Assembly: GCA_900770645.1 (NCBI GenBank)
Contig: CAAGKY010000102.1
Location: 1,053 to 65,052 of the forward strand
DNA from: Bacilli bacterium
Lineage (GTDB): Bacteria; Bacillota_I; Bacilli_A; ML615J-28; CAG-313
Direction of reading: 5' to 3'
DNA: 64,000 nucleotides
Part shown: positions 4,344-32,257 of the stretch, piece after piece
Layout of the letters: every line of letters starts with the position of its first letter
Numbering within the stretch: the stretch's first letter is position 1
Position numbers and translations under genes: made by a program
Notes under the pieces: generated by a model
Databases searched by the model: none
What the model was told of the DNA's origin: nothing
The model's input: only the letters and a program-made list of their open reading frames with translations

Positions 4344-4679
4344 ATGAATAGACTAGAAGAACTATTACTAAAAATAGTCAATAAAGAGCCTATTGGAAAA
4401 TGAGGTTGTGAAAATAGATTAGAGCAATACTTGTTTTGCATTATTGCAAAAGGTACTCCTGAAGCGACTGAAGAGTATGAAAAAATAAGATCATTAGATG
4501 GAAAAGTAGAAATAAACGGATTAGAAGCTTATTTAGATCTTATTTACAATATGACTCCAAATGGAACTAGTGAAATTATTGGCGAAATTATCGCTGCTAG
4601 ACTTGAACAGGTTGACCCAGAACCTACTATAGAACCAGTTGAAGTTATTAGTGGTCGATTAGAAGAAATAAAAGAATAG
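4344..4679 (+). CDS. hypothetical protein; first gene with an in-frame TGA (read as Trp)
   Basis: AAGGAGG RBS before ATG at 4344. TGA at 4401-4403 is in frame. The track shows only the 4431.. fragment. Confidence 0.5.
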
Positions 4680-4689
4680 GAGAAAAATA

Positions 4690-4914
4690 ATGGCAACATA
4701 TAGACTATGATTAACTATTAAGGACAGTACTGGAAAGACTAAAGAGATTGACGGTGGTACTATTAATGTTGATCTTACAAAATTAACTGATTTAGAAGTT
4801 GATACTTTATCTGCTGTTTTAGACCCAATCTACGTTACAGATAAAGAAGTAGAAGAAGTTGTATCAAATGCTGACACTATTAAATACTCTGATTTTAAAT
4901 TAAAAGAAGAATAG
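4690..4914 (+). CDS. hypothetical small protein (one in-frame TGA)
   Basis: GGAGAAAAATAATG. TGA 7 codons after the ATG. Ends at TAG. Confidence 0.45.
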
Positions 4915-4929
4915 TAAGGAGACGTAATA

Positions 4930-7455
4930 ATGATAGATTTTAAAGATTTTAAGATAAAGCGTGGTCCTGCTAAAGATCTTCATAGTCCGAGACTTATCGT
5001 AGAAGAAGGATATTGATATCTAAGTACTGATTCTGCTGAGTTATTTATTGGTATTGTAGTAGATGGTATACCACAATTAAAACCAATTAATGATACTTTA
5101 TTTGAGGCTAAACTAGCAAATTATGCTACAGTAGATTTTGTAAGAGAGGCTTTAGAGAGTATCGATATTCCAGAAATTAGTGTAGACGATTTTGCGACAA
5201 AAGAAGAATTAAATAATAAGGCTGATACTAGTTATGTAGATGAAAAAGTAGCTAATATTGTTAGTTCTGAAGGACTTGCAACAGAAGAATGAGTAAAAAA
5301 ACAAAACTACTTAACTGAGCATATAGATATTTCTGGAAAACAAGATATTATTGATGATCTAGAAGAGCTTAGAATTGGTGCAGCTTTAGGTAAAACTGCT
5401 CTTCAAGAAATTCCTACTGATTATGCTAAGAAGGACGACTTATTTAATAAAGATTACAATGAGTTAATTAATAAGCCTGAAGGATTAGCGACAGAGTCTT
5501 TTGTATTAGAAAAAATAGCTGAAGCTGAAATTGGTGAGAAAGAAATAGATCTATCAGTTTATGCTAAAAAAGAAGATCTATTCAGTAAAGACTATTATGA
5601 CTTAGAAAATAGACCAGATATTCCAGAAGCTTACGATGACAAAGAAGTTCGTAATTTAATTGCGAATAAAGCTGAAAGTTCATATGTAGACGAAAAAATT
5701 TTAGAGATTAATAGTAAAATCGATACCTTAGAGTCACATGAGCCATACGATGACTCTGAGTTACGTGAACTACTCAACGGAAAGTCCGACAAAGATCATA
5801 AGCATGACGAATACATTCAAGATTTATCTCATTTAGCTACAAAAGAAGAGTTATCTAACTATATAACTGAAGATATTTTAAATTCTAAAGGTTATATTAC
5901 AGACGTATCTGAAAAGCAAGATATAATTGAAGATTTAAGTGAAATCAGAGCAAATGCAGAATTAGGTAAAACTGCCTTACAAGCTATTCCTGAAGAGTTT
6001 ATTACAGAATCTGAATTAGAAGCTAAAGGATATTTAACAGATCATCAAAGTTTAGATAATTATTATAATAAAACAGAAGTTGACAATTTAATTAATAGTA
6101 TAGAATTGACTCCTGGTCAAAATGGTATTGATGGAAAAGACGGAGAAAAAGGTGAACAAGGTGAAGCTGGTAAATCGGCTTATCAAATCTGATTAGATCT
6201 AGGAAATACTGGAACTGAGCAAAATTTTATTGATTCACTTAAAGGCGAACAGGGAATCCAAGGTATCCAAGGTGAACCTGGAGTTCAAGGAGAAAAAGGT
6301 GAACGTGGAGAGCAAGGTCTTCAGGGGCCACAAGGTGAATCTGGTAAAGACGGATTAACTACAGCAGTTAAAGTTGGAACAACTACTTATACTCACGAAA
6401 ATGGCGTTATTAATCTTCCTAATTTTGTTGATAGTGATTATGTGACAGAGTATGTAGGCTCTGAACTTGACGATAGAGTTACCACAATAGGTAGTCAAAT
6501 AGCTGCTAATTATGCTACTAAGACATATGTTGATGATGCTATTAATAATGCATTAACTCCAGATAACCTTCCAGATGTGTTACCTGATGTATTACCTGAA
6601 GTTATTCCTACTGCTGTAACTTTAAAAGATTTACAAATTGGCGAAACCTTTACTACAGACGTGACAGTTGGTAAGTTAGAAGCTGGTACAGAGATTAAAT
6701 CAGAAATGACTTTTGGCGAATTATTAAAAGCTGTTTTCGGAGTTAGATGTAATCATGATTGACAAGAAGCAACATGTACTGAACCTAAGACTTGTAAACT
6801 TTGTGGAACTACCGAAGGAGTAGCATTAGGACACAATCCGTTACCAGCGGTAGAAGAAAATAGAGTTGAACCAACAACTACTTCAGTAGGAAGCTATGAA
6901 TCAGTAGTTTACTGTAATAGATGTGATGAAGAACTAAGTCGTGAAACTATTGAAATTCCAATGTTAGCACCTGAAGAACCAGAAATTCCAGAAGGATTAA
7001 TTGGTGATATTATAACAAATAAACGTGAAATGTATGTAGTTAACCACGACGGTTCATTGGAAGCAATTCCGTTTGAAATAAACATTTTATCTGAAGAGCA
7101 AGCAGCACAAGAACCTAATAGATCTGGTTTTTACCAAGTAGTTACAAATGAAGGTAATACTTTAGAAGCTGGCTATCATGATTTATCAGTATTAAATCCA
7201 GAATGAGTTTATATGGTAGTACTTCCTAAAGAAGTAAAAGCAGAAAATATTAGTGTACAAACTTTCTCAGATGAAGATCAAATTTGAGAAGATAGTACAT
7301 TCGAACTTACCAATGATGTAGATATTGTTGCTGACATTTGTGATATTTATGAAATGGATATAAGTGCTATAAATCCAGAAACACACACTGTATGAGTATC
7401 AGTGACTGAGCAACTTTGTACAGGAAGTAAAATAAGATATATAATAACAGACTAA
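4930..7455 (+). CDS. tail fibre protein with a collagen-like G-X-Y domain
   Basis: Single frame of about 841 codons interrupted only by TGA. Contains GQNGIDGKDGEKGEQGEAGKSAYQIW(tga)LDLGNTGTEQNFIDSLKGEQGIQGIQGEPGVQGEKGERGEQGLQGPQGESGKDG. N-terminal motif (KRGPAKDLHSPRLIVEEGYW) is shared with the other fibre genes here. Confidence 0.8.
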
Positions 7456-7476
7456 TGTAAAGGAGCTAAATAATTT

Positions 7477-7902
7477 ATGGCGGTAATGAAAAAAGATCAA
7501 TTATTGTATATTGGGCGTGGTCCATTAGATTCTAGATCGCTAGTCACTAGATATGATGACCTTTTTAAGGATACTACATGAGTAAAAAGTGTAAAAGCAG
7601 ATGATGGCACTACTCAAAACATTTGTGTTGCACATAATGGTATGATTGTAGCTGTTTGACGTAATACTACTGATACCACTAAAAATGGTATTTATTTCTT
7701 ACACGATCCAAATGTAGTAAAAACAACAGTAGACCCAGACTATAAGAATGAAGCAAACTGACATCGCTTAGATAAAAATGATGGCAGTGACATTAGTGAA
7801 GTAATTTCAAGACTCGCAGCTCTTGAAGAAAGCTTTGAAGAACATGCAGAAAGTGCTCCGCAAATCACTAAGATTTGTGGAGGAACCGCTTTCGGTGAAT
7901 AG
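7477..7902 (+). CDS. small structural protein with the shared fibre N-terminal motif
   Basis: AAGGAG RBS. Three in-frame TGAs. N-terminus LLYIGRGPLDSRSLVTRYDDLFKDTTW matches the anchor motif. Confidence 0.5.
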
Positions 7903-7968
7903 TGGTTTTATTCTAGTAATTCTAGATAAAATATATAAAAAGATAAATTTATAAAGGAGAAAGACTAA

Positions 7969-9036
7969 ATGGCACAAACTATTAATACAATTATTGTGTT
8001 AAGAAATGACCAAACAACTAACTGAGAAATCTCCTCTTATGTTATGCTTAAAGGTGAAGTTGGTATTGGTTATTTAAAAAATGGTAATGTTATTGCTAAG
8101 TTAGGTAATGGTGTCGATACTTGGAAAGACCTTCCTCAAATCGAAGGTGTATTCGAAGACGACGTAACATTAACTTATAACTTTGGTAAATACACTATCG
8201 ATTCAACAGTTGGTTATGTAAACGCTGGTGGTAAGGGTATGACTACTTCAGAATGGCTAATTGATGCCTTATCAGTAATTCAAGACCCAAATATTACTCA
8301 ACCTGAATGTTCATTATCAGCTTCTTGCACTGGTTCTGGAGCAGAAATTGGTTCAAAAATTACTAAGATCAATTGGGACGGAAATACAACTTTTGGAGAA
8401 TACGAATACGGTCCAGAAACTGGTTTAAGCGAAGCTAATAGAACTTGAACAATTTCTAATAATATTAATGATTTAACTTCTGAAGACGAAGATGGAAGTT
8501 TTGTAGTTGATATTCAATTAGATCAAGAAGCTAGTAAAACATATGCAGTGATTACTGGTAAATGCGTTTTAGACGCTTCAGAAGCTGCTTATGCAAAAAA
8601 TAATGTTGGTGCAACAACTACTTTACGCGTAAGTGGTTTAGATATTACTAAGACCGCTAATGCTACTGCTACAGCTTATAGAAAACCTTTCTGAGGCGTT
8701 CTTACTCCTGAAAGCGTAATTGATGTTGAAAACTTAACAAGTGAAATTATTAGAGGATTACCACAAAGTGGAACTTCAACAAAAGGTTTACCAAAATCTA
8801 TTTCAGTTCCAGCAGGAACTCAAATGGTAATCTTTGCTGCAAAAGCTGGTGCTTATAGCTCATTAACTGCTACAGATGATAAAGCTATGAATGCAACAGT
8901 AGGATTTACAAAAGTAGCTGATGCAGTTCAAGTTAAAGGTGCTAATGACTTTACTGCAACAGCCTACGATATTTGGTATGTTGACTGGCAAGCTGGTATT
9001 GGTTCAGCTAAACAATTAACATTAAAATGGGCATAA
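7969..9036 (+). CDS. fibre or baseplate-like structural protein (shared N-terminal motif)
   Basis: AAGGAG RBS. TGAs at conserved W (RNDQTTNW-EISSYVMLKGEVGIGY...KLGNGVDTWKDLP). One frame through 8448 and 8700 to TAA at 9034. Confidence 0.6.
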
Positions 9037-9058
9037 TTAAGAAAGGGGACAAAAGATA

Positions 9059-11572: not shown

Positions 11573-11626
11573 TTAGCTGTTCCTACCTATAAATATAAAT
11601 AGAATATTATAGGAGAAAATAAATAT

Positions 11627-13414
11627 ATGGCAGAAAAAATTCTTCAAACTAGAATTATTAACAAACATGACTCATATGAAGCTTGGAAAACGAGTTCATT
11701 AGTTTTAAAAGCTGGTGAAATTGCGTTAGCTTCTATTCCAACTGAAGTTAAAGACAATGACGGAGTAATCACTGTAAGACCAACTTATTTAATGAAAGTT
11801 GGTGATGGTGAAAAAACTTTCTCTCAATTAAATTGGTTATCAGCAACTGCTTCTGACGTTTATTCTTGGGCAAAAGTTGCAACTGCTGAACAAGTTTTAG
11901 TTAAAGCTGAAGGTGAAGCTACTGGTAAAGCTCTAAATGTTTGGTTCAAAGACTTAGTTGCAAAAGATTCTGCTCAACAAGCAGAGATCGCTGCATTACA
12001 AACAGCTATTGGTGGTAGTTCTGTTGCTAACGCTATTAAGGCAGCTATTGAAGCATTAGACGTTGCTGACGAAGCAGTTAATGGACAATTTGTAACAGCT
12101 GTAGCTGAAGCTGATGGAAAAATTTCAGTAAGTAGACGTGCATTAGCCGCTGAAGACATTCCAGCTTTAGGAATTGATAAGATTACTGGATTACAAGCAG
12201 CTTTAGACTTAAAAGCAACTATTGCATATGTTGATGCTGAAGTTAATGAATTAGATGCTAAAATTGCAGTTAACACTGGAGCTATCGGAACTGAAAAAGG
12301 TCGTGCAGAAGGTGCAGAAAAAGCTTTAGGTGAAAGAATTGATGGTGTTATTATTGATTATAAAGCTTATGCTGATCAAGCTGAATTAGACGCAATTGCT
12401 GCTGCTAAATCTTATACAGATGGTAGAGAAGCTGCTATTAAGACTGCTTATGAAGCTTACGCAGATCAAAAGAAAGCAGAAGCTCTTTCTTCAGTAGAAG
12501 ATGAAGCAACTGCTCGTGCGAATGCAGATAAAGATTTAGATGATCGTGTTAAAGTAGTTGAAAATTGGAAAGGTACTATTTCTAATGTAATGGACTTTGT
12601 TGGTGCTGTTGCTGCTTTACCTGAAAGTGTTGAAGGTTACCAAAAAGGTGATGTAATTGTTGTTACAGCTTCTGGAAAAGAGTATGTTAATGACGGTGTA
12701 AAATGGAACGAATTTGGTGTAGGTTCAGCTAATGAAGCTGCTATCTCTGGTTTACAAGGTAGAATGACTGCAGCTGAAGGAGAAATTAGCACATTAAAGA
12801 CTGGTGTAGCAGCTAATGTAGTTTCAATCGGACAAAATGCTACAAATATTGCTACAATTAATACATCTTTAGCAGAAGGTGGAGAAGTTAACAATTTAAT
12901 TAAAGCAGCTAAGAAAGCTGGTACTGATGCTCAAGCTGAAGTAGACGCATTAGAACAAGTTGTAGCAGCATTAAATTCTACTGTTGCATCTAATAAAACA
13001 GCTGCTGAAAACGCAGTAAAAGCTGAAAAAGAAGCTCGTGAAAGTGCAGATAACGAAATTAATATAACTTTAGGTACTCATACTGAAAATATTGCTAAAA
13101 ACGCTGGAGATATTAAAACTCAAGGTGAAGCAATTGATGCTTTAGAAGCAGAATTTGCAGCTGGTGGTAAAGTAAAAGTATTACAAGAACAAATGGCTGT
13201 TGTTCAAGGTAGTGGTGCTGGATCTATCGCTAAAGCATTATCTGATGCAAAAGCTTACACAGATTCTTTAGCTAATGGACAAGTTAATACTAATAAAGTT
13301 GCTATTGCTACTTTAGATCAAAGAATTGGTAAATATGACGGATTCTTTGGATTAGGTAATGATTCAGCTGGAGACTTCCCAGTATTAGTATTCGATTGCG
13401 GTGGAGCTGAATAG
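11627..13414 (+). CDS. tail fibre protein (shared N-terminal motif, Ala-rich shaft)
   Basis: N-terminus KHDSYEAWKTSSLVLKAGEIALAS...KVGDGEKTFSQLNWL matches the HylP-like fibre N-terminal motif. Ends at TAG. Confidence 0.65.
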   Translation: MAEKILQTRIINKHDSYEAWKTSSLVLKAGEIALASIPTEVKDNDGVITVRPTYLMKVGDGEKTFSQLNWLSATASDVYSWAKVATAEQVLVKAEGEATGKALNVWFKDLVAKDSAQQAEIAALQTAIGGSSVANAIKAAIEALDVADEAVNGQFVTAVAEADGKISVSRRALAAEDIPALGIDKITGLQAALDLKATIAYVDAEVNELDAKIAVNTGAIGTEKGRAEGAEKALGERIDGVIIDYKAYADQAELDAIAAAKSYTDGREAAIKTAYEAYADQKKAEALSSVEDEATARANADKDLDDRVKVVENWKGTISNVMDFVGAVAALPESVEGYQKGDVIVVTASGKEYVNDGVKWNEFGVGSANEAAISGLQGRMTAAEGEISTLKTGVAANVVSIGQNATNIATINTSLAEGGEVNNLIKAAKKAGTDAQAEVDALEQVVAALNSTVASNKTAAENAVKAEKEARESADNEINITLGTHTENIAKNAGDIKTQGEAIDALEAEFAAGGKVKVLQEQMAVVQGSGAGSIAKALSDAKAYTDSLANGQVNTNKVAIATLDQRIGKYDGFFGLGNDSAGDFPVLVFDCGGAE

Positions 13415-13436
13415 TAATTTATAATTAAAAAAAATA

Positions 13437-13469
13437 AAGAGTAGACTTATTTTGAGTCTACTCTTTTTA
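13437..13469 (+). terminator. rho-independent terminator
   Basis: Stem AAGAGTAGACT/AGTCTACTCTT followed by a T-run. Confidence 0.6.
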
Positions 13470-13545
13470 CTATAGGATTAAAAAATTTGCTAAATTATAC
13501 GAACAGCTTGTTTAAAAGCGTATTTTATAAAATAAGGAGTAACTT

Positions 13546-16500
13546 ATGCTAAAAATGATTGTACAACATCGCAGAGGTACGACTGCTGAATGAAAATTAT
13601 CTACAGTAATTCCACTAGAAGGTGAACTTTTAATCGAAGAAACAGTTTCTGATGGAATTAAACTTAAAATTGGTGATGGTAAATCAGGATTCTTAGGCTT
13701 ACCTTATATCACAGATTTACTATCTGATAAAATTACTGCCGCTGAAAAAGAATTGAAAAATGTACAAAGCACTGTTACTGATAATGAAGTTATTAGAAAA
13801 TTAAGAAAAGATTTATCTGACCTTGACACCGAAATTAATCTCTTAAATAGAGAACTAGTAAAAGTTCAAAAAAACGTTGGTGACAAGACTATTAACCCAG
13901 AAACAAACGAAATAACTTATTCTGGACTTCATGCACAATTACAGACAATTAGAAACAGTGTTAATATGTTATCAAATAGAATTAGTGGTTTTACATCTCT
14001 TGAAGAAGGTAGTGTGACAGGAGATGCTGAATTACTAGATATTAGACATGGATTTAACGGAATCGACTATTCGTCTGCTGGAGACGCTGTTAGAGCTATT
14101 GGAGACGAATTACAAGCTTTTAAAGATGCTCTTCCTAGTTTTATTCCTGATAATGCTGTTGATGGATTATCTTATGAGAATAATAAGTTATATCTAACTT
14201 CTCAAGGTATTCAAGTAGGTGACGCAGTAACAATTACAGGAGGTGGCGGCGGTGGCAGCACATCTAGTACAATTATCACTTTAAAGAATAATGAGGGAAC
14301 AACTTCTAATATGTCTGTTTCAAAAGGAACTAAAGTAGAAATTAGTTTTAATTTTAGTTCTATTGAAGAAGGCGTTCCTACAGGAGACGGCGTATATAAT
14401 TTAGAAGTAAACAGTAACCCAGTTGAAACAAATGTTCAACTTTCACAAGGTAATAAGACAATCGATTTAACTAAATATTTAAAAGCTGGAATGAATAGAG
14501 TAAAACTTACTTGTTTCGATTATACTGGTTCTTATAAAAGCTTAGCTTATACGATTAATTTAATAGAGTTATCTATTGATTCATCTTTTGGCCCAAATAT
14601 AAATGATATTACTATATTTGAAGCTGACAATGCGGATGAAAATTTTGTTAGCGTAAATTATAATTATACTACTTATGGACAAGTTACAAAAATTGCTCAT
14701 TTCATATTAGATGATCAAGAAATTACTAATGCAGAAGGAAAACCTCTAATTCAATCACTAGGGGCTGGTGAAAAATCTTCTTCTATTAAGTTTAAGATTT
14801 ACGGACATGGTTGCCATAAATTTCAAGTTTATCTTACAGCCACAGTGAATAATAAAACTATTGAGAGTAATAAATTAACTTATAATATTTTATGTAATTT
14901 ACCAGATCCTGAAGCTACTAGACATCCAGCGATGATCGATTCAGTTTTCGAGATTACTAAAGCGACTCAAGGAGATTTGTTAGAAATACCATACAGAGTA
15001 TATGACCCAAATACTGGTCAAGTAACTGTAAATCTATTAGTTGGATCTGGAACAAAAGATAATTATGTAATAGATGAAAAATTATCTAAAGAAGAATTTG
15101 TCGGTAGAACAAAGCAAAAATGACCGATAAAAAATTATCCTATTGGAAATACTGTATTTATTATTAAATGTGCTTATCAAGTATATAACGAAGAAGGTAT
15201 ATTAACAACATATTATGCAGAAAAAATTCATGAAGTATTTGTAGAAGCACTAGATATTCCAGTAGAAGCTGAAACAGCTAATTTACAACTTTGATTAAGT
15301 GCAAACGGAAGATCTAATGCTGAGCTTAATCCTGCAGTATGAGAATATACTCAAACTGTTGAAACTGCTAATGGAATAGAAGAATTAGATACTATTAGAA
15401 CAACTTTTTCTAACTTTAACTGAGTTAATAACGGATGACTTTCTGACGTTAATGGTGATACTTGTTTAAGATTAAATGGTGCCGCTAAGGCCGTAATTGA
15501 TATTAAACCATTTGAAAAGAACTTTGTTAATACAGGTAAAACTTTTGAATTTGATTTTGTAATTAGAGACGTAAATAATCGTGATAGTACTGTAATTAAC
15601 TGTTTTAGTGGAAATAGAGGCTTTAAAGCTACTGCTGACACTTTTACATTCAGAAGTGAATCTGTTCAAATGTCTTGTAACTATAAAGACGTAACATATT
15701 TAACAAAATTAAATGATAAAACTCAAAAAGAAGAGACTATAGAGCAACTTGAACGAACAAGAATTTCTATTACTATTGCTCCATCTAGTTTAATCGCAGA
15801 TAATGCACCAGATTTGAACACTTATTTTATCTCGATGTATATTAATGGTATTTTATCTAATTGTCAAAAATATGGTGGAATAGATGAAGGATTTACTCAA
15901 AGTAATCCAGTAAAAATTTCTTTAGGTTCAGAAGACTGTGGATTAGATTTATATAGTATACGTATATATGATAGTGCACTTTCTCATAAAGGAATTGTTG
16001 ATAATTATATTGCGGATAGTGCTAATGGTCCAGATAAAATAGATTTATATAGAGAAAATAATATTTATTACGCTGATTCTGAGTTATCAGATCAAATTTC
16101 ATATGAAAGTTTAAAAGGAAAAATTCCAATTGTCACTTTTACTGGTAGAATGCCAACATATAAAGGTGATAAAAAGACAAATTCTGTGCTAATGAAGTTC
16201 GAACATCCAGAACATCCAGAGCTAAATTTTGAAGAAGTATTAAAAGAAATAGACGTACAAGGTACTTCTTCTCAATTCTATGTTCGTAAAAACTGAAAAA
16301 CAAAACATTACGACAAGCATGCTCATATGAAAGGTGAGATTCCAACTAAGGTTTTCTGTTTAAAAGTTGACTACGCTGAAGCCACTGGTACTCATAATAC
16401 TCAAGCTGCAAATTTTGTAGAAACATTATATAATCGTTCTGAAGCTCTTTTACCACCACAAGAAAAAGATTCTAGAGTTCGTTCTACGATTACTGGTTTT

Positions 16501-19500
16501 CCATGCGTTATTTTTGAAAAAGAGACTGCTTCTTCTCGACCAGTTTTCTCAGCAAAAGCAAACTTTAACTTTGACAAAGGTTCTGAAGAGGCATTTGGTT
16601 TTACAGAAGATTATGATGTAGAATCTTGAGAATTTTGTAATAACACTTCAGGTGCATGTAATTTCTTAGAAAAAATTAATACCGAAGCTTGAGCAGCTGT
16701 TTATAGATTATCAGGTGCTACTGAGAATACGTCTATTACGATTACGGCTAATTCTCCTGAAGAGGCTGAAATTATTGCTCGTGAATTATTAGCTACGAAG
16801 TCTTCTGAAGATGCTCAATGAGTTAATGCTAAATATATTGGTGTACATCCTTATTGATTAACTGACTTTGAAGCTAGATATGCTCAAAATACTATGAAGT
16901 ATAGCGATGGTTCTACATTTAAATTTGATAAAGATGAAATGTTCTCTATTGATAGATTTAAAGAGATGCATGATTGAGTTTGTGATACCGCAACAGTTAT
17001 GTACGCTAAGCCAGAAGCTAAGGATGGCTACTGATGAGTAGGTAATAAAAATACTGGATTTGAAATTCTTACAGACGATGATGGAAATATAATTCAACCA
17101 GAGATTATTGAAGACGAAGCAACAAAATCTAAGAATTGATATATTAATGGAGTAGATTCAAAAATATCTAGTCTTGATATCGTTCCAATAAATGTATTCC
17201 CTTTACCTAAACCTGTGACTATTGGAACAGTTGAATATAGAGAAGATAACGTAGATTATCGTAGAGCAAAGTTCGTCAAAGAATTTACAAACTATTTTGA
17301 TGAACACTATGCAGCGGTTTATTATGTATATACTTTTGTCGCATTAATGACCGACCAAAGAGCCAAAAATATGTTCTTAACTTATTGAGGTGAGACTGGT
17401 AAATGATATCCATATTTCTATGATAATGATACTTCTTTTGGTATCAATAATGAAGGTGCTCTTGTTTTCGATTATTATCATGAAGATACTGATACATTAG
17501 ATGGTGCACTAGTTTACAATGGTCAAAATAGTGCATTATGAACAAACTTTAGAGAAAATTTCGAAGACCTAGTTTCTTCAACATATCAAAACTTAAGAAA
17601 TAATGGTAAATTAGATTACGAAAAATTTGTAGAGCAATTTATTAATTGTGGAGCTAAGAAGTGGTCTGCATCTATTTATAATGCTGACGCAGAATATAAA
17701 TATGTGTCTATGGCACGACCTGACAATTTAGGAAACTTTGATGCTGCAAACTTATATCAAGTTAAAGGTTCTGCTGAACAACATTTTAAATACTTTGTTG
17801 CAAATAGATTAAAGTATTGTGATAGTAAGTGAAACTGTGGTGACTACCCGGACGACAAGATTTTCTTACGTATTTATACTCCATCTACAGGTGATAATGC
17901 TATTTTAAATGAGCCAAAACAGATTGACGGATATTGATGGATTGATGGTGTAAACACTGGATACTTAGTTAATACAGATAGCAGTGATCAAATCATAATT
18001 CCAGAAATAAGTGAAAATAATACTTGGATTCTAAATAAAGGTTTAGAAGATCAAGAAATTGATACAGAGATAGAGGTTAGATACGGAAAAGTTGAATTAG
18101 CAGTGGCACCAAATGCTAATATTAGTTTAAAAACATTTTCAGATATGTATGCAGGTGTTAAATACAAAGCAAATGGTACGTTATTAAGAAAGAGAGTTAA
18201 GAAAAATGTAATGTTAACTGGAAAAGACGCATTTATTCCTCCAAAATCAGCTAACGGTTTATCTGAAGTATTTAATGATACTGAAACTGCGATTTATGGT
18301 GCGAGTGAAATTTCTTCTCTTGGAGACCTATCTGGACTTTATTGTGGTGTTATTGATGTTTCAAAAGCTACGAAGTTAACTGAACTAAAAATTGGTAACA
18401 GTACTACTGGTTATTTTAATGATAACTTTAGAGATATTCAATTAGGTAATAATAGATTATTGAAAAAAATTGATTTAACAAATTGTCGAGGTTTAGGAAT
18501 CGCTGGAAAAAGCCCTCAAAAATCTTTAAATGTATCAGGTTGTCCAAACATCGAAGAAATTTTGGTTAAGGGTACAAGTTTAGAATCAATTAACTTGCCA
18601 GCTTCTGGATATATTACAAAACTTGAATTACCAAATACTTTGACAGGTCTAAATATTAGAAATCAAATGTACTTAACAAATAGTGGTATTTTATTGGACG
18701 ATTATTCTAAACTTAAAAAATTACGTATTGAAAACTGTAAAAATATAGATACTTTAGCTCTTCTTAGAAATTGTATAGATAGTTCGAATAACTTTACAGT
18801 TGAACGAATCAAATTAACTGGAATAGATTGAACATTTGATGATCCTGAATTCTTATTATCACTTATGAGTATTAAAGGTATGGACGCAAATGGTTTAGAT
18901 ACTGATCATGTATATCTTGGCGGACATGTTCACATAAAAGAACTTACTGGAGCACAATATACTCGAATATTTGATTACTATAATACTTATCACACTAATG
19001 AATCACTTTTAAAAATTACTTTTGATCGTATGACATCTTATGTATCGTTCTATACTAACGTAAAAGATGGAAATGGAAACTATATTCCATTTACATTCTC
19101 AGATGGAACACCTTGAATCCAAGAAGTTACAAATACACTAAACGATAAAGGAGAAATTGTTCGTAATACGACTGATCCAACAAAAGTTCCTTATTTATAT
19201 GATGGAAAAGAGGAAAAATTACAAACTCCAACTCAAGAAAGCACTATTGAGTTTTCTTATGCATTTAATGGTTGAACACGTACGCCTAATGCTCCTGCTC
19301 AAGTAGATGCATTATTAGACGTTACAGGTGATCGATCTGTTTATAACGCATATGTAAAAACTATTAATAAGTATCCAGTTCAATTTTATACTTATGGTTG
19401 AGATGGTCCAGAGTTATTAAATACGGTTATGACTAATTATGGTGAAATTGCAGAGTATTCTGGTGATACAGCGTTACTGATTAAAGGTAATACTAGTGTA

Positions 19501-20871
19501 CCAGAACGATATGAATTTGTAGGATGATCGCCTGAACCATTAGTTAAGCCTACTACTTTTGATGAAGTTATTAAGACTTACGCTCAGTTTAACTTAGTCG
19601 ATCGAGATGAAGACGGAGATATTTCTGATGAGTGACATATTCCATTACTTGGTGATATTAATTACTCTATAGATGACACTTCAAAGAAGATGAATATTAC
19701 TGCTTACTATAATACTAGTGAACCATTAGTTTATATACCAGAATCTTATTTTATTGGAGACGAGGAATATTCTGTTTACGAGGTTGGTGGTTTTAACGCT
19801 ACAAATGTAGAACATGTTAAATTAGCTGAAGGAATAGAATCTATTTATGGACACCCAATAAATGGAGCATTTGCTGGTGCACAAAATTTAGTTGAAGTAG
19901 ATTTACCAGAAAGTTTGACTACGATTAAAGACAAAGCTTTTTCACAAACTCCTAGATTGACAGAATTATACATTCCAAAAAATGTACAAAGGATCGAAAG
20001 ATCAATTTTAGGTGAAGGTGGACATGTGAAAAATATTACCGTAGATAAAGATAATAAGATCTACGAAGCTATAGATGGATGTTTATTGGGACCTTATTCT
20101 TTATATTCTGCAAATGGAAAAGAGAATGAAAAGATAGTTCTTGCATGTAACACTAATGATGCTTTACCAGACTCTGTACAAGATAAAAATATTGTATGTA
20201 TAGGTACAGATGCATGTAGACAAAATCATTGTACCGAAATAACTATACCCAATACAGTTAAAATATTAGAAAACTTTGCTTTCTTTAGTTGTAAGAATCT
20301 TAAAAAAGTTAACTTATCTAGTAATGTTGAAGAATTTGGATCTGGAGCATTTGGATATTGTGAAAACTTAGAGTCTATCACTTTACCAGAGACTTTAGTT
20401 CAATTATCAAACCATGCGCTAGTTGGATCAAACCTTGAAGAAATTATTGTGCCAGCAAATGTAAAAAATATCTCAATCGAAGCCTTTAGTAAATGTAAAA
20501 ATCTTAAAAAGATTACTTTTATGGGTAAACCTGATAAGATTTCTTGGTCTATACTCGCAGATTCTGGTCATGAGGATGGCTTAGAGATCTATGTAGCTTG
20601 AAATAAAGAAGATAATCGCACGATTGGTGCTGGAGATACTGCCAAACTAGGTGACCCATATACTGCTATACCTTGTGCTTGAGGTGCAGGAGCGCCTATG
20701 CCACAAACACTTGATACAGAATCTGATTATGCCTATAACCGAGAAATTAAGCGTACTCGTAATGTAAAAATTATTTATAAAAATGGTGAAGAGCAATTAT
20801 TATTAGCAGGCGAAAAAGCTTGACCTGATTGATCAGCTATTTCAACATTTATAGATCGAGGAGACAATTAG
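13546..20871 (+). CDS. giant multidomain virion protein (about 2441 aa): fibre N-terminal motif, CotH kinase-like domain, LRR and BspA-type LRR
   Basis: I checked frame continuity across every junction; there is no in-frame TAA or TAG from 13546 to the TAG at 20869-20871. More than 20 in-frame TGAs. CotH-like DQRAKNMFLTYWGETGKW(tga)YPYFYDNDTSFG. LRR region 18100-18830. BspA-like LRR IPxxVxxIxxxAFxxCxxLxxI at 19690-20600. Confidence 0.7.
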
Positions 20872-20872
20872 T

Positions 20873-21565
20873 ATGTATAAAATAATTTATAATAACAAAG
20901 TTATTGAAGTAATTGAAAATCCAAAATTTATTCGATTTTTAGCTAAAGGTCATGTTGGTATTACTAGTAAGTCAGATGCGCAAGGAGTAATCAGTGAAAA
21001 TAGCTCTACTGTATATCGTTTTGATTATAGTGCTCAGACAACTAGAAAAAATATTCTTGATATTAAACTTGAAAGAATTTCAATAGAAGAATTTAGAAGA
21101 TTAGAACATCTTCTAAATTCTGGCAAACAGCCAGACGCAGACTTATCCGCACTATCTGTTGCAAAAAGAAATAAAATTTCAGCATTATCAGAAGAATGCA
21201 ATAGACAAATTATCTCAGGAATTAGCTTAGTCTTATCTGATAATCAGATACATCAATTTAAATTGACAATAGAAGACCAATTAAACATATTATTGTTAGA
21301 GAACCAATTAAACTCTGGTATAACTACGTTTGTTTATCATAGTACCGGTGAGCCTTGTAAAGTATTTAATAAAGAAGACATGTATAAAATTATTTCTTCT
21401 ACTAGATCTCATATTCAATATCACACAACATATTTTAATTTACTAAAGCAATATGTTAATACATTAGTTACTTCAGAAGAAGTTCAAAATATTTACTATG
21501 GAATAGACGTAGAAAAAATTTCTACTGATAAGACCATGAAGACATTTTTGCGAACTTTAAAATAG
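20873..21565 (+). CDS. hypothetical protein, possibly a fibre assembly or chaperone protein
   Basis: ATG overlaps the giant ORF's stop (TAGTATG). No TGA. Confidence 0.45.
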   Translation: MYKIIYNNKVIEVIENPKFIRFLAKGHVGITSKSDAQGVISENSSTVYRFDYSAQTTRKNILDIKLERISIEEFRRLEHLLNSGKQPDADLSALSVAKRNKISALSEECNRQIISGISLVLSDNQIHQFKLTIEDQLNILLLENQLNSGITTFVYHSTGEPCKVFNKEDMYKIISSTRSHIQYHTTYFNLLKQYVNTLVTSEEVQNIYYGIDVEKISTDKTMKTFLRTLK

Positions 21566-21603
21566 TTTGATAAATATTGTATAATATTAAGGAGATACAA
21601 GTT

Positions 21604-21861
21604 ATGGAAAATAAAACTAATATAATAGCACGTATTCAACAACTACATAATACTGAAGAAGTTTGAAGCTCAAGTAAATATTCAGAATTTATTCCAAGAG
21701 CAGGAGAACTTATTATTTTCGATGTGGACTCTACTCATAATTTTACTAGATTTAAATTTGGTGACGGTGTAACACCTTTAAAACATCTTCCATTTGCAAT
21801 AAATCCTATTGGTGAAGTATTAGAAGATGGGTCTATCAAAATAGACGCTGGAAGAGTCTAA
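21604..21861 (+). CDS. stand-alone fibre N-terminal-domain protein (85 aa)
   Basis: N-terminus IIARIQQLHNTEEVW(tga)SSSKYSEFIPRAGELIIF...KFGDGVTPLKHLPF. Consists of the shared anchor motif only. Confidence 0.5.
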
Positions 21862-21873
21862 TTATTCTGCAAT

Positions 21874-21915
21874 AAATAGGGTTTTAATTATTTTAAAGTT
21901 AAAGCCCTATTTATT
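21874..21915 (+). terminator. rho-independent terminator
   Basis: Stem AAATAGGG(T)TTT/AAAGCCCTATTT. Confidence 0.5.
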
Positions 21916-22018
21916 TGCTAAATTAAATGTAACAATTGAATATTTAGAATTAGTTTGGAATGATAACTAATTCTTGTATCGAAAAAATTTGGAAAAATAA
22001 TTTAAAGGAGATACTTAT

Positions 22019-22771
22019 ATGGCAGAACAACGCATTGATAGGATTCGAATTCAGATGAAGCGTGGATCTAGCTTAGATTGGCACAAAGCCAGTGAAGCTA
22101 CGACTCCATTTATTCCAAAAGAAGGAGAATCCATTTTTTATACTGACATGAACATGCTAAAAATTGGTAATGGGACAAGTACTCCAGACCAATTACCTTT
22201 TTTAGATGTTGAACATCCAGATGAAACTTTTAAAACTTTTGCAGTGTCAAATTATGACTGCGATAAATGTACAGAAGCTGGTGTGTATTTAATTTCTGGT
22301 GGAACTGATACGCCAGAAAGCTATGTTGGTGGAAATTTACTAGTAATTCCAAATACTGACTACATCACACAAATGTTATTTGTTCCAGGAAATGCTGCAA
22401 ACATTCGTGGTACAATGTTCTTTAGATACTACATTAATAAAATTTGGACAACTTGGGAACAAATCACAACATCTAAACATGTTCATCAAATTACTTTTAC
22501 TCCAACTGGAACAATTAGCTCTCCAGATATTATAGTGTCTGTTGAAACAGACGATGTAATAGGTAATTTTGTACCTGGATCTGGTAGTGCTAGTTTAGGA
22601 GTAGAAATTGATCACAAAAGATTATCTTTTGCGTTACAACATTCTCATGTAGCTTCAACTACTAGTACTAAAACAGTTCTTACTGCGGCTACTGCGAGAC
22701 TTAAGGATGCACCAGTATTTACTGGGACATCTACAACTATTGGCACAAATAATGCTATAGAAGAAAAATAA
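22019..22771 (+). CDS. fibre-like structural protein (shared N-terminal motif)
   Basis: N-terminus RIDRIRIQMKRGSSLDWHKASEATTPFIPKEGESIFY...KIGNGTSTPDQLPFL. Confidence 0.6.
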   Translation: MAEQRIDRIRIQMKRGSSLDWHKASEATTPFIPKEGESIFYTDMNMLKIGNGTSTPDQLPFLDVEHPDETFKTFAVSNYDCDKCTEAGVYLISGGTDTPESYVGGNLLVIPNTDYITQMLFVPGNAANIRGTMFFRYYINKIWTTWEQITTSKHVHQITFTPTGTISSPDIIVSVETDDVIGNFVPGSGSASLGVEIDHKRLSFALQHSHVASTTSTKTVLTAATARLKDAPVFTGTSTTIGTNNAIEEK

Positions 22772-22805
22772 TATTAAAAAAACTAAATAAAGGAGAAACT
22801 AATTT

Positions 22806-24995: not shown

Positions 24996-25160
24996 TAAGA
25001 ACTTAAAATTTAAAAAAATAAATATTTAATTAAAAAACTAGCCGTTACATTAATAGTGTTAAGCTATGTGTGACGGCTAGTTATCTTTAAATTTTCTAAT
25101 TTAAAATTGTATAATATTAAAAATAAACATTTTGACAATGAGAAAGGAGATTTCTTTTAA

Positions 25161-27137
25161 ATGGCAAATAAAGTAATTGATTCCATGACATATGGAAGCG
25201 ATACGTATACGATTTCGACGCCTTATGGAACCTGCTCGACTGCTGCAGCAACAGCAGCTAAAACTGTAACATGTGCTAACTTCGTAGCATTAGAGACTGG
25301 AGCAAAAGTTACAGTACTTTTTACTTATGCTAACTCAGTTGCAAATCCTACTTTAAACGTAAATAGTACAGGTGCGAAATATATTTTATATAGAAATACT
25401 AAATTAGATACTTCAGCAGAATATTGAAAAGCAAATGATACACTTACTTTTGTATATGATTCTACTTGAAGTTCTAATACTGGTGCTTGAAGATTAGAAG
25501 GTCATTTAGATACTGATACAAATACTAACACAACTTATTCAGTAACTACTGGTGACAATAATGGTCAAATTAAAGTTGCACCTAGCGGTGGAACTGCTTA
25601 TAATGTGAATGTTAAAGGGTTAGGATCATCTGCTTTTGTACCTACTTATAAGGCAGCTGAATGCACATCTTACTCTTCAGATGATGGTAACTGTACACCT
25701 GCAGCTGTAAATAAAGCGATTACTCAAGGAATTTTTCCAGCTAACTCTACTGCTTATGGTACAATTAAAGTATCTTCTGTTAATTCTTCTGCAGTTACAG
25801 TAAATAATGAATCTTCAACTGCTGGAAGATATTATCCAATAGAATTAAATAGTGATGGAAAAGCTATTGTAAATGTTCCTTGGACAGATACTGACAATGA
25901 TACAACATACTCAGCTGGAACTGGACTAACTAAAACTTCAACTACTTTTAAAGCAAACTTAAGAAGTGAGACAAAATTAACTAATGATTCTGCTGCAGCT
26001 ACTGAAGTTGCTAATAGAGTTTATCCAGTAGCGGTAGATAAATCAGGGTACTTATCAGTAAACGTTCCTTGGGTAGATACTAATACTCACGACGGTAATG
26101 ATAATCAAAAAGTTAGTGCTGGAACTACAACTTTTGGTATAAATGATACTGTTAAGTTTGTTGCTGGTAGCAATGTTACGATTACGCCTGATGCAACAAA
26201 TAAAACAATTACAATTAGTTCAACTGATACTAATACGGACACTAACACATCTCATGATCACACTGCGGGCACAGGATTAATTATTAGTGGTAGTGGTGGA
26301 ACATCTGGTACGACAACATATTCAGCAAATCTTAACAGTACAACATCTTTAGGAACTATTGGAACCACATCTAAGCTTTATGCTGTTGGTGTAGATGCTA
26401 ATGGTAAATTATGTGTAAACGTTCCTTGGACAGATACTAATACTGATACTAATACTCATTACACAACAGGTTTATATGTTGGAGCTAGTAATGCAAAATC
26501 TAATGCAGCTACTTCTAATGGTGGAACATACTTAAAACTGTATGACGACAGTACAAAACGTGCTGAATTTAAAATTACTGGGTCTGGTGCGACTACAGTA
26601 ACTTCTGATTCAAGTGGTAATATTACTATTAGCTCAACAGATACAAACACAGATACTGGAGCTACTAGTGTAGAAGTTACTGGGTCAGGTAATGCAGTAA
26701 CTGCTGCTTCTTATGATGCGTCTTCTAGAAAAATAACTCTAACAAAAGGCACTACTTTTTTAACTTCACATCAAACAATGTATTATAGACCTATTCGAGT
26801 GAATGGTACTCAAATTTTAGCTAATACTTCAAGTACAGCTTTAAACTTAAAAGCTGGAACAAACGTGTCTATTAGTAATTCTAGTGGAACAGTGACAATT
26901 AGTGCAACTGATACTAATACATGGCGTGGTATCCAAGATAACTTGACTAGTACATCTACTACTGAGTCATTAAGTGCAAATCAAGGTAAAGTATTAAAAG
27001 GATTAATCGACGGAAAATCAGACTCTGGTCATACTCACACTTCAGTTAATGGTTATACTATTACTGTTTTATCTCAATCTTCTTGAAATAGTCTTTCTTC
27101 TAAATCGTCTTCGACAATATATTTTATAACTGCATAG
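25161..27137 (+). CDS. paralogous fibre protein with VNVPWTDTNT repeats
   Basis: Same N-terminus (GTCSTAAATAAKTVTCANFVALETGA). Repeats Y(P/A)V(A/G)VD..G.L.VNVPW(T/V)DT. One frame through five TGAs to TAG at 27135. Confidence 0.65.
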
Positions 27138-27147
27138 GTGAATAAAT

Positions 27148-28389
27148 ATGGCAGTAAAAAAAATATATAAAGGATCGAGTGTAATAAATAACCTATCTGT
27201 TGGAAGCACAGAAGTTAAAAAAGTAGTTGTTATAAATAGTAGTGGTACTTCTAATACTGTTTATGAAAAAGATTTTGATACATACATTACTGTCGTAACT
27301 CCTGCTGGGACAGTTATAAACAAACAAATGGTGACAGCTGGCACAAGTCTTACAACGTCTACTCTTCTTGGTAAAGTACTATCTTATAAATCTTCTGAAT
27401 ATACATCTAATAATCTATACTATTATGATGTACCATGCGATATAACTGTTACACTCTACGATGAAAATAATCAAGTAATTAGGAATATTTTTACTACCGC
27501 TGACGATTTCTATGATGATTTAGCTTCTTATAATTGTGCTACTTCTGGAACATATTATCATATAAAAGCTGAAGTAGAATCTACTTCAAAAGTCGCAGTT
27601 ATGCTTAATATTGATGTTTATTATTATATGTCTTTTGCGCTTTCTGGACTAGTTTTTACTAAAAGTTATCATAAAGGCTCGACATATTCTCAAATTATTA
27701 ATGATTCAGGAAGACCTTCGAGTGAAGTTGTCACTACTGGTGGCTGAAAATATTCTTATTATTATCATCATTTAAGATATGACGACGATACGTCATCTAC
27801 TATTAGCTCTTCAGATCGTATTTTGTCTAGTAGAGCTGTTGAGTATTATTATGCGTATGATCTAGAACAAGTTGACACTAGCGCAGATGGCGCACCGACT
27901 TATTCTGGAGTATTCTTAAAGGCAAGTGATGGAACGTGGCAAACAGTTTTCTCTTGTAGCGGAAACTCTTACGGCGCTATTTATGGAACAGTTAATGCGT
28001 CTGGATCAGACGGTGCTTATAGTGGATATACTTATTCTCTTTTGCTGAAATTCTGAATTGTAACTCCGCCTGGGACAAGTGAAGGTAAAGGATGAAAAGT
28101 TACAGTATATAGTAATAGACAATATATAACTAGTGATGTAACTGCTTTTGATACTTCAAGCGGCTTTATTTTTCCTGGAGTAAACTCAAGAGGTACAGGA
28201 TTTAATAATGTTCGTTTAGGAACATACCAACAAGGTTCTCACAATCTTGGAACAGGGTGATTAAAATTAAAAGCTGCTGGAACAGATATTGTTGGAAGTC
28301 TTGGTGTTGAAAATCAAGAACTTACTAATAACTGTACTATTTATTGAGATGCTAACAACAGTAATTCATCTTCTGGAGGAGGAGACTAA
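27148..28389 (+). CDS. structural protein, unknown function
   Basis: One frame through TGAs at 27745, 28054 and beyond. Stop TAA overlaps the next start (TAATG). Confidence 0.55.
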
Positions 28390-29945
28390 TGAAAAAAAAT
28401 TATTTATACGATCTTGTGAAAGATGCAAAAAGCAATATATTAAATCATTTTGAAGTATTAAAAAATCAGTATCCAAATATTTTAAATTTTAATTCTTTTA
28501 ATGAGTTGCTAGAGAGAGTAAAATCTAAAGAACTATTAGATGCAATTAAAAAATTAATTTCTAATTTTTCTTTTGACGAAAATACAAAAAATATTTTGTT
28601 AAATCGTCTTGATGATACTGAAGATAGAGATCCTATTGTTATTGGGATCACTGGAACTGTGGGAAAAACTTCAATTGCTTATTTACTTAGCGAATATTTT
28701 AAAGCGTATGGAAAGAAGGTAACTCTTCTTTCTAGCGCTGAAATAGATAATCCAATACTTTCTATTTCAAAAAATTTTCCAATTGACGTTCCAATTACAT
28801 CTTTAGATTTTTTAAAATACTTCATAAAGGAAAGTTTAAATTATAATAGTGATATAATTATTATTGAAGTATCTGAAGAAGCTCTTAAAGACGGCAGAGT
28901 TGATGGTATACCTTTTGATATTAAGATTTTATCACATTTTTGGTCTACATGGTTATTTCCTGACACTTCTGAAGAGAATTATTTTCAAAACAAGAGTAAG
29001 TTTTTTGAAAAAGAAGATGACGTAATGTATTTTATTAATAATAATGCGAAAATGGTTCGTAGATTTATTGATAAAGTTAAAAATTATAAACTATTTGGTG
29101 CAAGAGTAAATAGTCAAGATATTAAGAATGAAGATACTAATTATATCGAAGAGCATTTATTTCAAAGTATAAAAAATCAAGCATATGTTATAAAAGGAGA
29201 AAAAGGTTCTTATACTTTAAAGAGTAAAAATATGTTTGGTACTCATCATATGGTTAACTTAACTTGTATTGTTGGAGTACTAGAATATTTAAATATGTTA
29301 GATACAGATATTTTAAGCCAAGTTCTTTGCTCAACAAAAGTTCCAGGTAGAGAAGTAATTACTGCAGGTGATAGAACATTTATTGTAACACTTAATTATT
29401 TAAATGAAATTAATTTTATTCGTGAATATTTAGCTAAAGAATATTTTGAAGAAAATGCATTAGGTGAGTCTTTGTTTAACGAGAAATTTAATTGTGAGAT
29501 AAATAATATAGTATTACTTGACGGTATAGAAGGATTTTCTCCAAATTGAAAAACTAGAAGTGGAAAACCTTTGACTGAAGAATTATTTAGATCTATTAAA
29601 GAGAGAACAAAGAGTGATTATAAGAGATGGAAGTCATTAGGTTTTGATGGATTATCTAAAATTTATTTAACTCCAAATAATCCAGGTCATGCAGACCCAG
29701 AAGAACTTGTTGAATATCTTCGTGAATTATACGAACCATCGCAAAAACCGATTACTACTATTTCTGATAGACGAAAAGCTCTTCAACAAGTTGTATTTGA
29801 CTCTGAACCTGGTGATATTATTTTTATCTCTGGTAGAGGTAATTTCCAATATTATGAGTTAAAAGATGAGACTTTATTCTTTACAGATAGTGCGATAATT
29901 ACAGATACAATAAAGAATTTACCTTGAAGTAAAGATTTAGCATAA
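28389..29945 (+). CDS. Mur-ligase-family protein (MurE/FolC/CapB-like nucleotide-binding domain)
   Basis: P-loop VIGITGTVGKTSIAYLLSEYF. Single frame through TGAs at 29547 and 29925 to TAA at 29943. Confidence 0.55.
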
Positions 29946-30712: not shown

Positions 30713-30891
30713 AGGTTCGAAAAACGTTTATTTTAAACGTTTTTTTATTTTATATATCTTTTATTACCTTTTTTCAAAAGTTTATTTGGGATTAATTTTG
30801 AAGCTCTATTATTAATATTTAAATTAACTTTATGAATTATTTTTTGCTAAATTATATGATATTAAAGTACGTTCACAAGAGGAGAAACGTT

Positions 30892-32255: not shown

Positions 32256-32257
32256 AA

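Follow-up and report, generated by a model that had tools for sequence, protein, structure and literature searches.

Reassignment of the TGA stop codon to tryptophan (Trp) has been described in several clades of low-GC gut phages, whose hosts are predicted to be standard-code Firmicutes or Bacteroidetes (Borges et al., bioRxiv 10.1101/2021.08.26.457843). In these phages TGA is concentrated in the structural and lysis modules, the replication genes keep to the standard code, and hardly any gene ends in TGA. Among the Agate phages, which include a lineage of ~127 kb, recoding preferentially affects an early-gene group I intron endonuclease and a transmembrane protein of the lysis cassette, and two Jade genomes carry a module of suppressor transfer RNA (tRNA), tryptophanyl-tRNA synthetase (TrpRS) and release factor 1 (RF1) upstream of the lysis genes. 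Suppressors were found in only 35% of the TGA-recoded genomes, and non-canonical tRNAs are suspected in the others (Borges et al., bioRxiv 10.1101/2021.08.26.457843). Here we analyze a 64-kb stretch of contig CAAGKY010000102.1 (the whole stretch is called the window below). It is part of a large, AT-rich and tRNA-rich phage of the gut or rumen type, with relatives on contigs of 100-166 kb. A block of tail-fibre genes rich in in-frame TGA codons (4344-29945) shares the window with early genes that practically lack TGA, and a tRNA(UCA) gene split by a predicted group I intron, together with a TrpRS, would supply the means of decoding TGA.

Related decoding and RNA-processing systems are known from other settings. 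Phage TrpRS:tRNA-Trp(UCA) pairs from code-change operons, AP1 and HF2, insert Trp at UGA in experiments (bioRxiv 2025; PMC12636597). Bacterial group I introns interrupt the anticodon loops of cyanobacterial tRNA-Leu(UAA), Azoarcus tRNA-Ile and the tRNA-Asn and tRNA-Asp of Patescibacteria (PMC13168695, PMC13011429), and in Patescibacteria they hide the tRNA genes from gene finders (PMC13011429). Theta ribozymes, which resemble the ribozyme of hepatitis delta virus (HDV), adjoin the suppressor tRNAs of recoded gut phages (PMC10879173). In the open-access literature we found no description of an intron-interrupted suppressor tRNA, the nearest cases being the theta ribozymes and the tRNA introns of Patescibacteria.

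Frames in the window were rebuilt from stop to stop with only TAA and TAG as stops. The resulting 60 curated genes end in TAA (43) or TAG (17) and, within the window, never in TGA. A reading of the DNA made without database searches (the sequence-only reading) had proposed that the gaps and fragments left by the standard code between 4.3 and 30 kb are long frames broken only by TGA, and this proved correct. The block at 4344-29945 (plus strand) resolves into 15 contiguous genes with Shine-Dalgarno sites, which cover 97.2% of it against 66.5% for standard-code open reading frames (ORFs) in those frames, counted from a length of 60 aa upwards. Every interruption is a TGA, none is a TAA or TAG, and only 29.7% of the coding length of the block precedes the first TGA.

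The 15 genes contain 60 TGA and 30 TGG codons and encode mostly tail-fibre and receptor-binding proteins, with a Mur-ligase-like gene at the 3′ end; matches in the block include Pfam Mtd_N, LRR_5 (the BspA-type leucine-rich repeat, LRR), Phage_fiber_rpt and Mur_ligase as well as tail-fibre families of PHROGs. A giant receptor-binding protein of 2441 aa (13546-20871, plus strand), with 30 in-frame TGA and four TGG codons, joins an Mtd_N N-terminus to a CotH-like middle and a BspA-type LRR C-terminus. The collagen-repeat tail fibre (841 aa; 4930-7455, plus strand; PHROG match) has seven TGA codons and no TGG. At position 27084 a TGA lies close to the gene end, where a short read-through yields the usual fibre C-terminal motif ending in TIYFITA. 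Three genes of the block (11627-13414, 20873-21565 and 22019-22771) have only TGG or no Trp codon. The Mur-ligase-family gene (28389-29945; middle and C-terminal domains) includes two TGA codons, one of them six codons before its TAA stop, and stands in an unusual position for such an enzyme, at the close of a tail-fibre block.

Comparison with homologues identifies TGA as a sense codon meaning Trp and excludes glycine (Gly) and selenocysteine, in agreement with the sequence-only reading, which had preferred Trp to Gly. A 558-aa CotH-like stretch of the giant protein served as query and retrieved 114 homologues, to which the whole protein was then aligned. Its TGA columns hold W in 73/73, 71/71, 68/70, 61/73, 60/72 and 36/36 sequences and in similar fractions elsewhere; the other residues are mainly F and Y, with G in one homologue at one column. 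The motif GETGKw (w being the residue encoded by TGA), which had been quoted as the CotH example, is present at 17404, but Pfam gave no CotH match in the giant protein at E ≤ 0.01, and the CotH domain is visible only in the homologues; a PDB sequence search with the CotH-like region also gave no match. The remaining quoted motifs all occur, AYQIw at 6190, TNw at 8023, AEw at 13591 and EEVw at 21664.

Exchange of TGA for TGG at the same position supports the assignment. Ten TGA codons of the giant gene align with TGG in the homologue on a temperate phage contig (L001), which uses the standard code, as five of its 13 called genes end in TGA. The shared part is the C-terminal receptor-binding module, 53% identical over 737 aa to L001 10001-12787; the L001 phage also carries a serine recombinase and a CHAP/SH3 lysin. 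Fibre modules of this kind therefore move between phages of different codes, with TGG changing to TGA in the recoded one. Among orthologues in two related contigs, L002 (132.7 kb) and L003 (100.3 kb), TGA stands in both sequences at 16 aligned positions and faces TGG at nine, and the lysis-cluster orthologues swap TGA and TGG at the same codons. The Mtd_N-like N-terminal motif contains a conserved Trp, and in this one column at least three paralogues of the window have TGA while two have TGG. When TGA is counted as Trp, Trp per 1000 codons evens out between the gene classes (11.5 versus 12.8).

Two other meanings of the codon are Gly, as in code 25 of Gracilibacteria and Absconditabacteria, or selenocysteine. 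In their favour is the label "tRNA-SeC", which ARAGORN gives to any tRNA with a TCA anticodon. We give them next to no chance. The TGA columns hold W and otherwise mainly F or Y, with the single G mentioned above, and TGA interchanges with TGG between orthologues. In the tRNA described below the acceptor stem has the ordinary 7 bp and the variable arm is short, and its sequence is closest to Trp tRNAs. Selenocysteine is incompatible with TGA codons that number over 75 and stand in ordinary structural proteins.

Usage of the two codons is strongly bimodal across the window. The 37 non-endonuclease early-type genes contain 94 TGG codons and one TGA, as against 30 TGG and 60 TGA in the 15 genes of the fibre block, eight and six in the four genes of the lysis cluster, and two and nine in four homing endonucleases. 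For the late class the TGA:TGG ratio is 66:38, for the early class 1:94 (Fisher p = 5e-24 over Trp codons), and TGA is carried by 15/19 late genes but only 1/37 early genes (p = 3e-9), which bears out the clustering by gene class that had been predicted. If the early genes behaved as the late ones, the chance of finding at most one TGA among their 95 Trp codons would be 5e-40. Base composition does not account for the split: GC content at third codon positions is ~0.15 in both classes, the density of off-frame TGA is 24 versus 26 per kb, and all other NNA/NNG pairs have A at 82-98% in both. In early genes the A fraction is 0.011 at TGA/TGG and 0.83-0.98 at the other pairs. TGA is thus actively kept out of the early genes by selection, which is intelligible only if it acts as a stop while those genes are translated.

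This exclusion also argues against a code matched to the host, in which a Mollicute-like bacterium would always read TGA as Trp (code 4). Such a host would fit the AT-rich genome and the absence of TGA stops from the window, yet it would leave unexplained why the 37 early genes keep 94 TGG codons to one TGA when A takes 83-98% at other NNA/NNG pairs. TGA is present in only 19 of the 60 window genes (32%), compared with ~90% published for host-matched recoded phages, and the phage has a tRNA(UCA) and a TrpRS of its own. We consider a host-matched code very improbable. The bimodality is incompatible with Mollicute-type usage; the sequence-only reading had found it a better fit to the recoding of a stop codon in late phage genes, and the pattern does match that of the published phages with such recoding.

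The recoding extends beyond the late and structural block to which that reading had assigned it: the fibre block stands, except for the three genes without TGA, and TGA is found in addition in the lysis cluster, in homing endonucleases that sit amid early genes and in one gene next to TrpRS. The lysis-type cluster (51822-54329, plus strand; Pfam Phage_holin_6_1) comprises a multi-pass membrane protein (51822-52448; four TGA, two TGG), an Ntn/proteasome-like gene with TGG only (52560-53228), a protein with a transmembrane segment and a coiled coil (53318-53932; one TGA) and the holin itself (53982-54329), in which TGA is codon 4. An endonuclease VII-type homing-endonuclease-like gene within a tRNA cluster (36634-37386, plus strand) has four TGA and one TGG, and a NUMOD3-type one (50751-51731, plus strand) has four TGA and no TGG. 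A third (60866-62032, minus strand), directly upstream of topoisomerase II subunit B, has TGA at codon 23, which must be read through because the next alternative start lies at least 158 codons further on; neither an Rfam match nor an upstream exon indicated that this gene sits inside an intron of the topoisomerase gene. The fourth (1805-2182, HNH_3 and NUMOD4), in the left early region, has no Trp codon and so is uninformative.

The claim that early genes use TGG exclusively holds for 94 codons and fails for one, a TGA in the SLOG/YAcAr-like gene directly after TrpRS (44124-44510, plus strand; one TGA, one TGG). It is the sole non-endonuclease early gene with TGA; the YAcAr Pfam match comes from its orthologue in L003, where the TGA and TGG positions are swapped. 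The individual genes that had been named as free of TGA are so: TrpRS, the TROVE/Ro60-like protein, the two topoisomerase II subunits, a methyltransferase-like protein, the hibernation-promoting factor (HPF) and a phosphoesterase have 2, 11, 6, 5, 4, 1 and 7 TGG codons, respectively. Two longer runs of early genes lack TGA altogether, one at 30200-35794 (plus strand; HAD_SAK_2, SPFH, TROVE/Ro60 and others; 17 TGG) and one at 54413-60839 (metallophosphoesterase and topoisomerase II subunits A and B; 22 TGG).

With normal settings neither ARAGORN nor Rfam finds a tRNA(UCA) or other suppressor in the window, where standard tRNA tools detect 12 tRNA genes. Between a tRNA-Met and the DFP gene lies a non-coding stretch with conserved counterparts in L002 and L003, and here we recognize a putative opal-suppressor tRNA(UCA) in two exons on the plus strand. 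Its 5′ exon (38333-38365) supplies the acceptor and D arms and the 5′ side of the anticodon arm, up to U34. A 219-nt group I intron without an ORF (38366-38584; Rfam Intron_gpI) separates U34 from C35, and the 3′ exon (38585-38625) starts with C35 and A36 and contains the T arm, A73 and an encoded CCA. A terminator-like hairpin (38638-38659; a consensus match only) lies 13 nt past the tRNA 3′ end. In silico excision of 38366-38584 leaves a clean cloverleaf of 74 nt with the anticodon loop CU-UCA-AA, A73 and the encoded CCA, and the body is Trp-like, with a 7-bp acceptor stem and a short variable arm.

Several lines of evidence support both the intron and the tRNA. In a narrow-region search the Rfam model RF00028 (Intron_gpI) matched over its full length with 45.5 bits (E = 1.3e-10), slightly short of the gathering score. 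RNAalifold, run on four homologous precursors, recovered the tRNA stems together with intron elements P2, P3, P4, P6, P8 and P9, with compensatory change in 16 pairs, exon stems included. When the spliced tRNAs of the window, L002, L056 and L057 were aligned with the suppressor and the tRNA-Trp of a more distant contig, L004, 98.4% of cloverleaf positions were paired and 13 of the 21 pairs showed compensatory change; no shuffle or slid control approached this pairing. The 13 compensatory pairs in the exon stems indicate that the split gene is under selection.

The position of the splice site can be read from the pairing of the exon with the intron. A guide, GGAG, is invariant in the four full-length homologues and forms the pairs C32-G, U33-A and U34.G, and U34 is the only conserved U.G wobble in P1. 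A wobble of this kind characterizes the 5′ splice sites of group I introns. A later site is excluded because the base after U34 is C in L002. C35 is able to form a P10 pairing with the adjacent guide G, and the first intron base (U or C) can pair with the neighbouring G; all homologous introns end in AGG. The register is fixed by three features, the U34.G wobble with GGAG, the pairing of C35 with G and the G with which the intron ends. It yields the anticodon arm CGGTCTTCAAAACCG, which the intronless tRNA(UCA) of L004 has in identical form.

Introns of the same small group I family, with the core AATTCGGCGAA...CGCCGAGC...GTAGAGACTA, were also seen in IMG/VR contigs. At eight loci on large phage contigs they split tRNA-Leu at 34/35, the anticodon being UAA in seven, where the site follows the same CUU, and CAA in the eighth, and at two further loci they apparently split tRNA-Lys(UUU). 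Intron-split tRNA genes therefore seem to be common in large phages. Searches with exact intron and exon patterns gave no match in IMG/VR and two in metagenomes.

The split gene is accompanied by a TrpRS gene (43134-44123, plus strand; Pfam tRNA-synt_1b, E = 1e-71) with two TGG codons and no TGA. TrpRS relatives at 74-85% identity number in the hundreds and lie on metagenomic contigs of up to 133 kb; the split gene, which four relatives also have near TrpRS, was found 0.8-4.5 kb upstream of TrpRS in every contig, at 4.5 kb in the window. The linkage of tRNA(UCA) and TrpRS is seen in the window and in L002, L003, L004, L056 and L057. In IMG/VR a single-protein scan with the TrpRS query was empty and an alignment-based scan returned L004 and L005. 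The TrpRS of L004 (166.5 kb) is 67% identical to that of the window and is preceded, at a distance of 73 nt, by the intronless tRNA(UCA), with a tRNA-Trp(CCA) just downstream. From these comparisons we regard it as established that a split tRNA(UCA) gene exists, is conserved and is linked to TrpRS.

L002 and L003 share not only TrpRS with the window but also HPF, DFP, HAD_SAK_2, the holin and membrane proteins, and they show the same division: TGG alone around TrpRS, and TGA in the holin, membrane proteins and endonuclease. TGA in the giant fibre gene of relatives was seen only in L002. An HPF gene of the S30AE family lies within ~1 kb downstream of TrpRS in all three (window 44556-45086, L002 4323-4847, L003 3450-3986), and its place beside the tRNA and TrpRS suggests a conserved translation-manipulation module that may reach beyond the tRNA-synthetase pair.

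We propose, with a probability of about 0.8, that the phage has two coding regimes and itself supplies the Trp decoding of TGA by means of the intron-split tRNA(UCA) and TrpRS. The genes that encode translation factors or serve nucleotide and DNA metabolism or RNA handling are readable alike in the standard code and in code 4, and the tail-fibre and receptor-binding genes, the holin-containing lysis genes and the homing-endonuclease genes depend on in-frame TGA being decoded as Trp. The decoder would be the phage's own Trp-like tRNA(UCA) (38333-38625), working with the TGA-free TrpRS (43134-44123), which probably charges it with Trp, to judge from the linkage of the two genes and from published assays on other phage pairs. 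The group I intron is predicted to self-splice in vivo, and as the suppressor gene is split at 34/35, a functional suppressor would arise only after transcription and self-splicing. The host presumably uses the standard code, to judge from the avoidance of TGA in the early genes. The delay before suppressor activity would then hold late, lysis and endonuclease proteins until late infection.

A lytic-timing function of the recoding is plausible. We infer it from the gene classes, and the same data fit a passive accumulation of TGA under an existing suppressor. A more specific version, in which the code switch is gated by RNA self-splicing, so that its rate or conditions (GTP, Mg2+, a phage or host factor) time the translation of the TGA-containing mRNAs for tail fibres, holin and endonucleases, appears rather unlikely to us. 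If true, intron-split suppressors may explain part of the ~65% of TGA-recoded phage genomes that have yielded no suppressor.

Several points weigh against the proposal of two coding regimes with a phage-supplied decoder. An RF1 gene was not found in the window. ARAGORN, in intron mode and at low threshold, labels 38333-38625 as "tRNA-Cys(GCA) with 219-nt intron". The RF00028 score of 45.5 is below the gathering score of 50, and the match is missed in wider searches. Two splice registers are formally possible, one base apart, and in both of them the 5′ exon ends in U and the intron in G; the UCA register was chosen by the P1 wobble, the discriminator base and homology rather than from the sequence of a spliced product. 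As to codon usage, the early and late classes were assigned from annotation alone; the late-class TGA fraction, 63%, is below the 82-97% of other A-ending codons; it differs strongly among genes (chi-square p = 3e-5); and the TGA codons are not concentrated near 5′ ends.

In a rival reading, 38333-38625 would be an intron-bearing tRNA-Cys(GCA), as in the default register of ARAGORN, or a dead tRNA, with TGA read by another suppressor or by a near-cognate tRNA-Trp of the host; the window is only part of the genome, and tRNAs elsewhere in it are unseen. We hold this to be improbable. The discriminator is A73 in all five homologues, whereas tRNA-Cys identity requires U73, which the tRNA-Cys of L004 has. 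The spliced sequence shares 55/76 bases with the tRNA(UCA) of L004, 47/76 with its tRNA-Trp(CCA) and only 31/74 with its tRNA-Cys. The sole conserved U.G of P1 is at U34, with the following C in L002 ruling out the later site, homologous introns insert at 34/35, and the 13 compensatory pairs in the exon stems mark a gene under selection, not a dead one.

Another rival account, with the same decoding machinery, is permissive drift, in which AT-biased change from TGG to TGA accumulates wherever the suppressor is already present and is purged earlier in infection, so that the bimodality would follow from expression timing and not set it. A late TGA fraction below the neutral A-ending level suggests incomplete drift, and the strong variation among late genes, some fibre genes having TGG only, the lack of a 5′ positional bias, and the exchange of receptor-binding modules with standard-code phages, in which the codon is TGG, are all in keeping with it. 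The late-gene TGA fraction did not correlate with gene GC content. Less easily reconciled with drift are the TGA that forms codon 4 of the holin gene, the presence of TGA among the first 35 codons of 10 of the 19 TGA-containing genes, and the published observation that lysis-related and intron-endonuclease families are preferentially recoded. We see drift as a possible explanation of how TGA came to be distributed, but not as the likely one. The proposal of two regimes with a phage-supplied decoder remains the reading that we prefer.

The window as a whole has nearly all transcription on the plus strand and a GC content of 26-38%. Among the phages in GenBank no close relative of the window was found, the best topoisomerase match having 35% identity, and no terminase gene is present in the window. 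The sole nucleotide-level match to any GenBank phage is a 52-nt stretch of the tRNA-Met gene (37975-38026), with 94% identity to the tRNA-Met of Bacillus phages CP-51 and JL. Weak hints suggest a Gram-positive gut or rumen bacterium as host: a Holin_LLH-type holin, the CHAP/SH3 lysins of the standard-code phage that shares the receptor-binding module, and weak matches to rumen RNA motifs. The names "Bacteroidales" and "Parabacteroides" carried by homologues of the receptor-binding protein were rejected as host evidence, as these are phage-like contigs binned into metagenome-assembled genomes and belong to a different type of phage with an integrase. Scanning GTDB genomes with the intron and exon patterns gave five matches, all by chance and without a tRNA, and hence no clue to a prophage or host.

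Other features of the window concern RNA. Between two tRNA clusters, 2.2 kb without ORFs (47080-49250) are relatively GC-rich (35-38%) and contain many GNRA-type hairpins. The Rfam DUF3800-XI RNA motif matches at 47706-47752 with 53.6 bits, above its gathering score, cow-rumen-3 RNA matches weakly within the same region, and the 44-nt motif is conserved in L003 (8338-8381); the region may encode one or more structured RNAs. Low-threshold ARAGORN also reported a "tRNA-Val with 358-nt intron" at 47412-47865, which we rejected, as it had no group I match and no credible exons. Two TGA-free proteins are related to RNA, HAD_SAK_2 ("Swiss Army Knife" RNA repair; 30200-30712) and the TROVE/Ro60-like protein (34136-35794). 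For the latter no Y-RNA-like partner was identified, and just downstream of its gene (35880-35956) there is a very weak match to an HDV-like ribozyme (drz-agam-1, 20.4 bits, E = 0.74).

The gene for topoisomerase II subunit B shows a break at its 5′ end (60800-60890, minus strand). Its long frame lacks a start codon. The expected N-terminus, MQKTDKNLYTNESIISLNPREFTRLR, is encoded in another frame, which opens with the ATG at 60882 or 60888, shares its first part with the end of the endonuclease gene and is closed by the TAA at 60804-60802. With a +1 shift at CGA-TAA-C this frame would continue into NCPATYLGS and the rest of the protein. The break reflects either programmed +1 frameshifting or an indel in the assembly.

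In practice, this contig and its many relatives need gene calling with code 4, as otherwise about one third of the proteins are fragmented. With its anticodon interrupted by a group I intron, the suppressor gene escapes default ARAGORN and the Rfam gathering thresholds, and it thereby offers a testable explanation for the apparent absence of suppressors from most TGA-recoded phage genomes. If our explanation is right, a ribozyme step lies on the path from infection to a change of genetic code. The locus would also add another natural, compact pair of TrpRS and tRNA(UCA), with A73, of the type used for genetic-code expansion. The coding pattern itself is not new, being a fresh example of a described phage phenomenon; the intron-split suppressor is, provisionally, an apparently new detail.

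In its general organization the phage resembles the Agate and Jade phages of Borges et al., which are likewise large, low in GC and rich in tRNAs, with recoded structural and lysis modules at scattered places in the genome, replication genes compatible with the standard code and essentially no TGA stops. As in Agate, a homing or intron endonuclease in the early region and a lysis transmembrane protein are recoded, and the ~127-kb Agate lineage compares in size with the relatives found here (100-133 kb). The differences lie in the decoding apparatus. TrpRS was reported from two genomes there, but is clade-wide here, with hundreds of sequences at 74-85% identity; no intron-containing suppressor was reported there, and the window has no RF1. 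Like HF2 (PMC12636597), the tRNA described here has an A73 discriminator, but the tRNA genes of AP1 and HF2 are continuous and presented without mention of introns, whereas this one is split. Mollicute code 4 and the code 25 of Gracilibacteria and Absconditabacteria also make TGA a sense codon; theirs is a genome-wide change, to Gly in code 25, and ours a bimodal use of TGA as Trp.

The intron resembles those of bacterial tRNA genes (PMC13168695, PMC13011429): all are ~200-220 nt long, have no ORF, follow a U of the anticodon loop and form P1 with the anticodon arm, and the interrupted gene escapes standard tRNA finders. In contrast to the genes covered there, the one interrupted here is a stop-codon suppressor that would be needed by about one third of the phage genes, and its self-splicing is a prediction. 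With the theta ribozymes (PMC10879173) it shares the coupling of a small ribozyme to the maturation of a phage suppressor tRNA. The two belong to different ribozyme classes and act at different places: theta ribozymes lie outside the tRNA and process its ends, while the intron described here splits the anticodon itself.

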